Virus record (IMG/VR): IMGVR_UViG_3300033072_000326
Location: 1 to 64,000 of that record
Strand: one strand, 5' to 3'
Source: a virus
Lineage: Duplodnaviria > Caudoviricetes
DNA length: 64,000 nt
In this document: piece by piece, positions 328 through 41,341 of the stretch
Numbering within the stretch: position 1 is the first letter of the stretch
Layout: every line of letters starts with the position of its first letter
Program-made: the position numbers and the translations under genes
The notes under the pieces: generated by a model
What the model was told of the DNA's origin: nothing
Databases searched by the model: none
What the model saw: the letters and a program-made list of their open reading frames with translations, nothing else

Positions 328-1375
328 TTATCTAATGTCGTCCCACATCTGAAACTCATATGTTAACGTCACAACTCCGTATTCTGACATGACATACACG
401 CTTGTGTCAACAACATCTGGCTCAGGGTCACGTAGACGAGCACGTAATGCTTTGTGTACACCATCCTCCCATGCGCCCTCTAGAATAACCCCAAGACAAA
501 TCCTGCTTCCGCTGATGATGTTCCAGAGAATGTAGCTGTCCTTGAAACACAGTGTCAGGTGGCCATCTCGTTTCAGTTCCATTGTTTGTTTCTTCCAACC
601 CCAACCCAACGATTGCATGGCCTCTACAAGAGGGAGAATGTCTCCTTTGTTTTTGTATGCAACAATACCAATACGCCCGTCAGCTTTGCCGCCGTCACGT
701 TTAGCTTTCTGCGTAATAAACGCTGCTTGATTTTTCATTCATTAATCTCCACAACAACAGAAACACCTGCTTTTGCAAGTTGTTCTTTCAGCCACCGAAT
801 AGCTTCTCGTTCACTCATCTCATGCACACCATCAGGTGCTGCATCCTCTTCATATTCTTGAGCGTAGACAGAAAGGTATGGCCCAACTTCCTCGTATTCA
901 GTTCCAAACCAACTGTGCCACTCAACTTCTTCCCCGTCAATTTCCAAACAATCAAAGTTGATGATATAGTTTCCACCACCAGAACAGCATCCATCACCAC
1001 ATGTCCACTCTTCTTCCCAATAGCCACTGAAATAATACGTTTTTATTGCTTCTCCTTCAACTTATTACACTTTTCAATAATATCTTCATCAACAGGTTCT
1101 GGAAATGTTAATATCTGTTTGAGCTTGTGTTCCACATCTGCGAAGTTGAGGGAAAAGATAATAACACCGTCTTTCAGCATAAGCATTTCCCACCATCTGA
1201 TGTCTTTACGCAATTCGTAGTACTTCGATCTGCCTTGTAGCTGGCATTGCCAAATGCTGTACTTCTCATGCTGGAACAACTTTGTCTCTGCGTAGTCTTT
1301 GTAGGTGTGTGTTTGCATAATATCTTTCATGTATTCGTCTACAATTTCATCACTCATATTTCCCCCTTTAAGCAA
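328..1375 (-). CDS. Three hypothetical early proteins (328-738, 735-947, 1043-1375)
   Basis: Tightly packed ORFs co-oriented with neighbours, with SD-like motifs; no recognisable domains. Confidence 0.6.
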
Positions 1376-1513
1376 ATGATGTCATAAGTATGATAACGGT
1401 GAGTGTAAATACCAACACCAGTCCCCCAGTCAAGAATAGCATCGCATAAATCGCAGCTCTGCCCAATTCATCTGCTCTTTCGTACTCTCGCTGCCAATAC
1501 TTGAAAAATGCAA

Positions 1514-1726
1514 TCATTTCTGCCTCTCCTCCTGCACTGCAAACAAGCCTCGGACAAGGTTTGCATTGTAATCCATATGACTCACTGTTTCAACCTCTGC
1601 TTTACAGTTGTTACAACGTAGACACATCAACCCTTCTGCAATCAATTGTACCCCTCGCACAACCAATGGTGCATCATAGTACACTTCCACCATGTAACCT
1701 GCACTACACCGTCTGCATTTCCTCAT
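1514..1726 (-). CDS. YgiT/MqsA-type zinc-finger protein (70 aa), stand-alone antitoxin N-domain-like
   Basis: ATG at 1726 after AAGGAGAGAAG. Sequence MRKCRRCSAGYMVEVYYDAPLVVRGVQLIAEGLMCLRCNNC has CxxC...CxxC spacing and G-x-MV, D-x-P, RG, G residues like the MqsA N-terminal domain. Confidence 0.7.
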   Translation of the reverse strand: MRKCRRCSAGYMVEVYYDAPLVVRGVQLIAEGLMCLRCNNCKAEVETVSHMDYNANLVRGLFAVQEERQK

Positions 1727-1892
1727 TTCTTCTCTCCTTGTAAAATACACATACAAAAGCATGTGCAAATAGCGATTGCTGGCACAGAAACACCCCTTAG
1801 AGCGACGATTGGCCTGTTTGGCTCCGGTTATGCGTCACAGCTTTAAATTGACGCGTTTAAACGCTGTTTCTGCGGCTTCTAAGATAGTGTGC

Positions 1893-1921
1893 ATATTAAC
1901 ACATGTGCTCTCTGTTGTCAA
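1893..1921 (-). promoter_or_regulatory. sigma70-type promoter
   Basis: TTGACA-17 nt-TAATAT on the minus strand, upstream of the MqsA-like gene. Confidence 0.7.
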
Positions 1922-3373: not shown

Positions 3374-4357
3374 TTAGTTCTCCTTATTTGCATAGTTTAG
3401 CAGGTTTGTGTATACACGCTCATCCAAGAGGTGTTTGAACTTTTCTGCAATCTCAGATACACGTTCTTTCTTTGCTTTTGTATATGCCGCAACAGCTTCC
3501 TCAACAGTATCATATTGACCTAGGTACGACTGCTTTAATTTCCCACCTTTAGTCAACTCCCCTCGTTGTATTTGCGCGATATATTTGCACTTGTCTTTGC
3601 AGAAGTGTATACCAACAGGTAGGTCATTATCACTAAGAGACTTATTACTACCAGTAAACAGTGAATTGACTTCCACGGGTACTAAGGTACAAAAAGAAGG
3701 CCCATAAACCCTGTTACCTTCCACAAGAAGGTCTTTGTCAACATGTAGCCCCTTACCTACATGAGGTTGTGAGTAGTACCATTCGGCAAAAACCTGAAAA
3801 TTATGCCATGCGGAATCCACCGTACAATCTTTGTAGGAGGTGCTACCTTGCTTCTCTCGCCATCCAGTGTTGTAGCACCTTTTCATGATACCTAGCCACA
3901 CCTCGTAAGCCTCTGAGTTTTTGCCAGATGAGTCCCGCGAAGGGTATGGTCCAACACCAAAATAGCCTACACCAGATGCTTTTGGACTAAAAGGGTCACG
4001 AATCGAACCCAACCTTACTGACTTAAGATCAGTTGTTGTTTCGTAACCGGTTGCAGTAAACCTTACCTTTACGCGAACACTGGATATGTATTCTAGTACA
4101 GTAAAATCCCCACATTGAACACTTTGCATTGTGCTACCAACCAATTCCTTTCTGATGCGTACTGAATCGCAGCTCCCGCAAGACTTGGAGTTTCCACTTC
4201 GAAGATTGGCAACAGGTACAACAAGCTCATTGCCACAATCACAAACTACCTTCCATTGTCGGCCTTTACTTCTGCCATTTACAATAAGACTCCCAGCCGG
4301 CTCTACGACTAGGAGGCTACCGAACTTTTTACCAGTAAGGTTTACTACAGCCCCCAT
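3374..4357 (-). CDS. Free-standing HNH-type homing endonuclease (modular)
   Basis: N-terminal TGKKFGSLLV...CDCG...SKSCG module. C-terminal W..IMKRCY...WHNFQVFAEW...VDKDLL...CTLVP module followed by an AP2-like YLGQYDTVEEA. Confidence 0.8.
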   Translation of the reverse strand: MGAVVNLTGKKFGSLLVVEPAGSLIVNGRSKGRQWKVVCDCGNELVVPVANLRSGNSKSCGSCDSVRIRKELVGSTMQSVQCGDFTVLEYISSVRVKVRFTATGYETTTDLKSVRLGSIRDPFSPKASGVGYFGVGPYPSRDSSGKNSEAYEVWLGIMKRCYNTGWREKQGSTSYKDCTVDSAWHNFQVFAEWYYSQPHVGKGLHVDKDLLVEGNRVYGPSFCTLVPVEVNSLFTGSNKSLSDNDLPVGIHFCKDKCKYIAQIQRGELTKGGKLKQSYLGQYDTVEEAVAAYTKAKKERVSEIAEKFKHLLDERVYTNLLNYANKEN

Positions 4358-41176: not shown

Positions 41177-41341
41177 CTATTTCTCCTCTATATTAAAAGT
41201 AAAACTACCAGTAGCATTCTTACGAGCATTGTACGCTTTGTAAACTTCTACAACATGCTCATTAGGCGCTGGTGGATTATCAATCAACTCCTGCACGAAG
41301 TCAACATCTTCTTGCGTTAGTTTCAAGTTAATATCTTCCAC
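41177..41341 (-). CDS. 54-aa peptide resembling TacA/DUF1778 antitoxin C-terminal domain
   Basis: Manual translation MEDINLKLTQEDVDFVQELIDNPPAPNEHVVEVYKAYNARK..., GTG start after AAAGGAGAG; below the ORF-track cut-off. Confidence 0.65.
   Translation of the reverse strand: MEDINLKLTQEDVDFVQELIDNPPAPNEHVVEVYKAYNARKNATGSFTFNIEEK

Follow-up and report, generated by a model that had tools for sequence, protein, structure and literature searches.

The DNA analyzed here (the window) is a 64,000-nucleotide stretch, positions 1 to 64,000 of the 88,042-bp virus record IMGVR_UViG_3300033072_000326, which is classed as linear, is estimated to be 71% complete, and has a GC content of 42.8%. We found no near relative of this phage among 50,697 deposited phage genomes when its first 6 kb were searched by megablast, and its PhoH protein reached at best 45% identity, to the PhoH of Pseudomonas phage vB_PsaM_M1. 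Close to the start of the window lies the gene for a small zinc-finger protein, here called P0001, together with two neighboring genes and two short upstream signals (Table 1). The frame is intact over 70 codons and opens with ATG. A sequence-only reading of this DNA had proposed the same open reading frame, and we recovered it as claimed; the first 59 residues quoted there were correct as well.

Table 1. Features at the zinc-finger locus, in window coordinates
Feature	Position	Strand	Basis or remark
CDS, stand-alone MqsA N-terminal zinc domain (P0001, 70 aa)	1514..1726, including stop codon	minus	ORF call, homology, fold model, predicted toxin interface
Shine-Dalgarno sequence AGGAG	1734..1738	minus	7 nt 5' of the zinc-finger-gene ATG; read from the sequence
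Sigma70-type promoter-like site, TTGACA-17-TAATAT with extended TG	1893..1921	minus	10/12 consensus positions
Macro-domain gene, DarG-like, 154 aa	1924..2388	minus	Pfam Macro 30.7 bits; NCBIfam DarG E 3e-11; PADLOC DarG E 2e-13; PHROG 335
ORF of 49 aa, one hydrophobic helix	1368..1517	minus	Start overlaps the zinc-finger stop (ATGA)

The promoter-like site that the same reading had placed upstream of the gene is present, directly 3' of the macro-domain-gene stop and ~165 nt before the zinc-finger ATG. We treat it as a consensus match only; the 3.5-kb region holds 12 sigma70-like sites, compared with 7.1 expected from shuffles. No toxin gene is adjacent, as had also been stated, the neighbors being the macro-domain gene upstream and the membrane-type ORF downstream, and neither the MqsR profile (PF15723) nor the SecB profile (PF02556) matched anything in the 88-kb record.

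The upstream gene corresponds to the macro portion of the antitoxin DarG, and macro genes resembling it are present in 2403 deposited phages. By its sequence it looks like a second active antitoxin domain without a toxin, and it is a candidate AdfM-like anti-DarT factor (cf. PMC13309987). Farther along the window, a 54-aa ORF with a GTG start (41177-41341, minus strand) gave a Pfam TacA1 (DUF1778 antitoxin) score under the family cut-off (E 0.023, 15.1 bits against 21), with residues 6-36 on profile positions 47-77 of 80, colinear with the toxin-neutralizing tail; this weak match may represent a third antitoxin fragment in the phage. A 327-aa ORF of no clear family (3374-4357, minus strand) lies between the PhoH and ClpP-like genes. 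In the sister phage described below, a 238-aa ORF upstream of PhoH (L003:543-1259) carries an AP2 domain. Whether homologous or not, both of these last two ORFs could be free-standing homing-endonuclease-type genes.

A word-indexed search returned a single close relative of P0001, the 73-aa protein P0002, which is 77% identical over the aligned part and is encoded on a 91-kb metagenomic phage contig; we refer to the two proteins as the phage pair and to the second genome as the sister phage. Its locus (L003:3650-5222) holds the same small genes as window positions 735-1726, including the membrane protein (114 aa there and 49 aa here) and an acidic "EVEWHSWF" protein. In the sister phage the zinc-finger gene stands at the opposite end of this block, is coupled to another gene upstream, and has no macro gene before it; it therefore moves as a unit of one gene and has no constant partner. 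The 114-aa homolog of the membrane-type ORF lies two genes upstream of the sister zinc-finger gene, and because the two are not adjacent, we regard the 49-aa ORF as a co-transcribed neighbor and not as a conserved partner. We also considered whether the 107-aa gene that overlaps the sister zinc-finger gene from upstream could be an MqsR-like toxin. This candidate was rejected, as it is a homolog of the window ORF 735-947, which encodes an acidic protein with no Pfam match and lies downstream of the zinc-finger gene in the window.

Direct comparison of P0001 with the curated MqsA families gave scores under the whole-protein cut-off of both. Against Pfam MqsA_antitoxin (PF15731, cut-off 30 bits) it scored 13.7 bits (E 0.067; residues 3-56 on profile positions 2-55 of 131), and against NCBIfam TIGR03830 (cut-off 61.8 bits) it scored 18.1 bits (E 0.0018; profile positions 1-55 of 127), values that are low because only the first ~55 of the 127-131 profile positions can match. 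When a HMMER profile of the phage pair was run against the whole PDB, only E. coli MqsA chains were retrieved (3ga8, 3hi2, 3gn5, and 2kz8; E 0.002-0.008). These alignments were free of gaps, reproducing with a profile what the sequence-only reading had aligned by eye, and they placed the zinc ligands Cys4, Cys7, Cys38, and Cys41 of P0001 on Cys3, -6, -37, and -40 of MqsA.

The relationship became much stronger through intermediate sequences. An exhaustive HMM search of 1.84 billion representatives yielded 14 proteins, the best of them 206-225 aa long (E 1.5e-10 to 5e-4). Eight of the 14 are full-length proteins of 206-225 aa that were matched at their N terminus, and a ninth, P0015 (199 aa), is cut N-terminally. 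All seven long relatives scanned with Pfam passed the MqsA_antitoxin cut-off (45-60 bits against 30), and their architecture consists of the zinc domain, a helix-turn-helix (HTH) domain, and ~70 further residues. A second search seeded with the long relatives returned 419 proteins, nearly all of 180-230 aa, and those with names are called MqsA-family antitoxins. In hhalign, the phage pair aligned with 15 long members at 98.8% probability (E 6.9e-17) over 66 gap-free columns with 38% identity, and a profile of the long MqsA proteins matched the 88-kb record once, at 1514-1726 (profile positions 4-74 of 221, E 2.8e-19). The homology of P0001 to the N-terminal zinc domain of MqsA is thereby secure at the sequence level. 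The expected profile match to the MqsA/YgiT family holds strongly by way of the relatives; the direct Pfam and NCBIfam matches are weak and lie below the cut-offs.

The same alignments support the proposed domain boundary, with P0001 stopping where the linker and HTH of the full-length relatives begin. No frame of the 88-kb record matched the HTH or the C-terminal tail in the long-MqsA profile, which led us to reject the idea of a full-length MqsA split by a frameshift, with this gene as its first part. A second weak match in the record (83701-83817, E 0.007, with an internal stop) runs antisense inside a 180-aa gene and was treated as chance. P0001 descends from MqsA but falls short of full membership in the curated family, since it has neither an HTH nor a toxin neighbor and scores below the cut-off.

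The fold is in agreement with this assignment. An AlphaFold2 model built from a 52-sequence alignment had a pLDDT of 95.8 (a 2-sequence alignment had given a useless model, with a pLDDT of 46) and consists of a β-hairpin (11-23/26-38), a short strand at ~44-46 (AEVET), and a helix (48-69). The top five Foldseek matches of this model in the PDB were all E. coli MqsA N-domain entries (E ~1e-4, probability 1.00, TM 0.56, 26% identity), and nothing besides MqsA-N fell below E 0.2. The next neighbor was ZifS (TTHA0897; E 0.26), a free-standing small zinc-finger protein of Thermus for which we found no literature.

The N-domain of E. coli MqsA is known to bind MqsR by adding a third strand (Ser43-Met45) to the toxin sheet, with further contacts from the helix residues Lys47, Ser50, Phe53, Met54, and Arg61 and from a small second site at Lys2-His7 (PMC2791442). 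The N-domain alone restores the growth of MqsR-expressing cells and forms a 1:1 complex with the toxin (PMC2791442), so that the statement of the sequence-only reading that this domain binds and neutralizes MqsR is backed by published work. The MqsR active site is not occluded in the MqsR:MqsA-N crystal, and the mechanism of neutralization by the N-domain only is accordingly unsettled (PMC2791442).

We co-folded P0001 with the MqsR-like toxin encoded beside one of its long relatives (locus L004, described below), both with alignments. The ipSAE was 0.89 in three runs, compared with 0.00 for the best of three controls, contact agreement between runs was 100%, and the pLDDT of each partner was at least 91; the ipSAE mark used is reached by 58 of 80 solved complexes and by 2 of 110 mismatched pairs. 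The predicted contacts of P0001 (residues 5-6, 19, 21-23, 30, 33, 35, 43-48, 51-52, 54-56, 58-59, and 62) correspond, at an offset of +1, to the primary and secondary interfaces of 3HI2 (Pro4, Val5, Ser43-Met45, Lys47, Ser50, Phe53, Met54, and Arg61). An MqsR-type interface of the kind previously suggested was thus predicted, with the L004 toxin as the partner, and it matches the solved one. This pass indicates likeness and not proven binding, and it may partly reflect model memory because a like complex (3HI2) has been solved.

To place P0001 within the family, we examined the loci of its long relatives. All four that were checked share one arrangement in prophage-like DNA, in which a toxin-sized gene is followed by MqsA and then by a gene of ~145-165 aa with overlapping stops and starts; by content, the order is MqsR-like toxin, MqsA, and SecB-like protein, an MqsR-MqsA-SecB module of the toxin-antitoxin-chaperone (TAC) class and of the MqsRAC type. 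In L004, the locus of the long MqsA P0005, the leading gene scores 36.2 bits with Pfam MqsR_toxin, above the cut-off of 26.2 bits, and the third matches SecB (E 0.0018) as well as PADLOC PD-T4-9_C (CmdC, the chaperone of CmdTAC; E 5e-6). The corresponding values for L007 and L008 were E 9e-5 and 0.076 for MqsR and E 9.5e-5 and 2.7e-5 for SecB. The module of P0003 lies between gpD and Ogr of a P2-like prophage, beside an Abi gene.

A maximum-likelihood tree of the N-domains, unrooted and built on 65 columns with many forks open, placed the phage pair within a clade (support 95/96) that holds all four verified TAC antitoxins. The pair sits there on a long branch, with 1.79 changes per column, and P0001 is only 36-42% identical to the N-domain of any TAC MqsA. 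In the TAC-antitoxin clade, forms lacking the HTH have originated independently at least three times. The nesting in this clade suggests that P0001 was captured from the MqsA lineage that serves MqsR-MqsA-SecB modules and not from classical MqsA.

Several relatives deserve mention in their own right. P0008 (96 aa; L009:1211-1501, L010, and L011) is another HTH-less MqsA N-domain, found on six metagenomic contigs, where its neighbors are small ORFs and a fragment of a Rha-like phage regulator and include no toxin gene. Its N-domain is separated by a branch length of 0 from that of the 221-aa MqsA P0020, and it retains a few residues that align with the far C terminus, which suggests a recent internal deletion. 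Another metagenomic protein, P0022 (142 aa), has an N-domain identical to that of P0020 and is listed by Pfam with HNH_3 (PF13392) and MqsA_antitoxin, an unusual pairing. In the alignment of the long MqsA antitoxins, six of nine end in -AA or -VA, endings reminiscent of ssrA-type ClpXP degrons, which would fit the reported ClpXP dependence of TAC antitoxin turnover (bioRxiv 10.1101/2024.02.24.581848).

P0001 itself is very rare. A tblastn search of the 50,697 phage genomes found nothing but one chance match, PHROGs and PADLOC hold no family for it, and a scan of IMG/VR with the phage pair gave no further copies. A single further copy of the zinc-finger family came from 5.8 billion clusters, and IMG/VR and INPHARED added no others. 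Among deposited phages, MqsA-like matches to the long P0005 occur in only six, and every one of these matches reaches into the HTH region. The temperate Pseudomonas phage Hali carries an unannotated block (PQ533658.1, 23445-24771) directly after its integrase, with genes for 108 aa, a 205-aa MqsA-like protein, and 129 aa, all labeled hypothetical. It has the same gene order and sizes as the TAC modules and looks like one, the flanking genes being known by order and size only. Among named genomes, the only N-domains that phmmer still links to P0001 belong to TAC loci of Gallionella, Gallionellaceae, and Rhodocyclaceae MAGs, which gives a lead on the host of the phage that is only a hint.

We then assessed sequence constraint by comparing the two phage copies. 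The two phages are 18% diverged at the DNA level, and in both the gene is cut at the domain boundary. The dN/dS was 0.27 for codons 1-47, on a small count of 8.5 non-synonymous changes, and ~1.2 for codons 48-67, where 16.5 non-synonymous changes fall on few sites. The core of P0001 is under purifying selection. The C-terminal helix, which forms part of the predicted interface, differs strongly between the copies, indicating either relaxed constraint or adaptation that tracks different toxins. The most conserved stretch of the TAC clade is the toxin-contacting strand A-Q-V-E-T, followed by an invariant Asp and Asn, and P0001 retains A-E-V-E-T, Asp-52, and Asn-54. Overall, it agrees with the clade consensus at 14 of the 23 positions predicted to make contact, compared with 13 of 42 others.

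Together, the sequence comparisons and structural models make it fairly probable that P0001 acts as a chaperone-independent orphan antitoxin that neutralizes MqsR-type toxins. The stand-alone DarG-like macro gene next to it also speaks for this reading. The scenario would run as follows. The gene would have lost the HTH, and with it DNA binding, dimerization, and autoregulation, along with the C-terminal tail that makes a TAC antitoxin chaperone-dependent and prone to proteolysis. Its promoter-like site would let host RNA polymerase transcribe it. Where the host carries a TA or TAC system of the MqsR type, the resident antitoxin would be destabilized by infection, in TAC hosts because a structural protein of the phage competes for the SecB-like chaperone. 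P0001 would then bind the freed RNase toxin 1:1, using β-strand addition (AEVET) and the helix behind it in the manner of the MqsR:MqsA-N crystal, and would keep it inactive, so that translation shut-off and abortive infection would be prevented. Several points weigh against this scenario: a type II antitoxin usually acts only on its cognate toxin, whereas P0001 shows the 36-42% identity and the long branch noted above; the helix of the interface differs strongly between the two phage copies; the active site stays open in the crystal; the direct family scores are below the cut-offs; the promoter is a consensus match; and the family is very rare.

The most serious alternative is that an MqsA-N-fold zinc ribbon was recruited to another task in infection, acting on a different host or phage protein or on nucleic acid, with toxin neutralization no longer its role. 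Small zinc ribbons are widespread in phages and serve varied tasks. The long branch of the phage pair, the 9 of 23 predicted contacts at which it departs from the clade consensus, the fast-evolving helix, and the free-standing nature of ZifS, the next structural neighbor, also speak for recruitment. The retention of the toxin-contacting strand (A-Q/E-V-E-T) with Asp-52 and Asn-54 argues against it, as does a predicted complex that is confident and specific relative to the controls, and we know of no other function for an MqsA-N domain. We regard recruitment as unlikely, with a chance large enough to be taken seriously.

Far less credible is the idea that P0001 is a decaying, functionless leftover of a TAC or TA module that ancestors of the phage carried, as temperate phages do. 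Full MqsR-MqsA-SecB modules are indeed typical prophage cargo, as in Hali and the P2-like prophages, and truncated forms arose repeatedly, with P0008 standing at no distance from the 221-aa protein. Decay is difficult to reconcile, however, with an intact frame behind a good ribosome-binding site, a cut exactly at the domain boundary in two diverged phages, and the low dN/dS of the core. The 88-kb record also contains no toxin, HTH, or chaperone pseudogene debris anywhere, and no tyrosine integrase was found in it. Finally, that P0001 is the antitoxin half of a phage-borne two-gene module, with the 49-aa membrane-type peptide as its toxin, is highly improbable: the 4-bp start/stop overlap, the hydrophobic helix, and the homolog in the same sister-phage neighborhood speak for it, but the two genes are not adjacent in the sister phage, where the zinc-finger gene is coupled to another upstream gene and the membrane protein has 114 aa, all checked relatives pair with MqsR-like RNases, and we know of no MqsA-family member that pairs with a membrane toxin.

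Returning to the orphan-antitoxin interpretation, sequence and structural modeling point to the disarming of MqsR-MqsA-SecB defense during infection as the most likely role of P0001, and we infer from them that the protein would bind and neutralize the toxin of an actual host, at the point in infection when the toxin is freed and to the benefit of the phage. The idea of a counter-defense decoy had already been put forward in the sequence-only reading, and its premise that MqsR-containing TAC modules act in anti-phage defense is backed by the MqsRAC system of E. coli C496_10, which gives E. coli protection against T2 (PMC9519451). TAC systems are triggered by competition for the SecB-like chaperone: a structural protein of the phage contends with the C-terminal element of the antitoxin, and degradation of the antitoxin follows (bioRxiv 10.1101/2024.02.24.581848). 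That the phage kept the neutralizing domain only, as the reading proposed, is supported at the sequence level, and the nesting of the gene in the TAC-module clade, the class with demonstrated anti-phage activity, goes beyond the earlier idea.

Comparison with known systems makes clear both what P0001 shares and what it lacks. With the N-domain of E. coli MqsA (YgiT; 3GA8/3HI2) it has the fold and the four-Cys zinc site in common, aligning without gaps over ~50-66 residues at 25-26% identity, and the toxin interface of MqsA-N uses a strand and a helix equivalent to those predicted for P0001. Unlike that domain, P0001 is a complete phage gene product, without an HTH and without an adjacent mqsR, and in sequence it is much closer to the long TAC-type MqsA clade than to K-12 MqsA. 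The MqsA proteins of that clade (P0005 in L004, P0003, P0017, and P0025) share the A-Q/E-V-E-T strand and the D..N motif with P0001, which differs from them in having no HTH, no ~70-aa C-terminal extension (the presumed chaperone-addiction element), and no adjacent toxin and chaperone genes. The MqsRAC of E. coli C496_10 is likened to this clade by description and not by sequence (PMC9519451).

Viral orphan antitoxins form the other point of comparison: proteins that are related to antitoxins or mimic them, that are encoded, like P0001, by a virus without the toxin, and that counter a host TA defense. This role is proven for SMV1 gp44, AdfN, and AdfM; Dmd of T4 also belongs here. P0001 fits this group in that the virus encodes a homolog of the neutralizing part of an antitoxin and no cognate toxin in the 88-kb record. 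Closest to it in logic is gp44, which SMV1, a virus of archaea, encodes: this homolog of the type II protein antitoxin Phd binds and neutralizes the host Doc toxin (PMC11065993). AdfN (NADAR) of T4-like phages (PMC11825919) and AdfM (macro) of PhiKZ (PMC13309987) are enzymes that reverse the product of the toxin and are not toxin binders, unlike the role proposed for P0001. What sets P0001 apart from the other members is its TA family, MqsR/MqsA, and the retention of a single antitoxin domain.

A bolder version of our interpretation, which we offer tentatively and think possible, would make P0001 the first TAC inhibitor: having neither tail nor HTH, it would escape removal by the TAC sensor, in which the chaperone is hijacked and proteolysis ensues. 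P0001 would then be one of several neutralizing-domain-only genes of this phage, next to the DarG-like macro gene and the TacA-tail-like ORF 41177-41341, and would reflect a general strategy of collecting the neutralizing modules of TA systems.

In the literature searched, we found no description of a phage-encoded MqsA N-domain or of any inhibitor of a TAC system. The computational evidence supports placing P0001 among the phage orphan antitoxins, aimed at a defense class for which that literature describes no counter-measure. TAC systems (MqsRAC, CmdTAC, and HigBAC) are a recently recognized class of phage defense. If our interpretation is true, a stable copy of the neutralizing part would defeat a sensor built on the instability of the antitoxin, and the orphan-antitoxin idea, so far proven with AdfN, AdfM, and the viral Phd, would come to include a family of bacterial type II RNase toxins. 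A search rule for anti-TA genes would be gained as well, namely to look in phage genomes for single antitoxin domains that are cut at domain boundaries.
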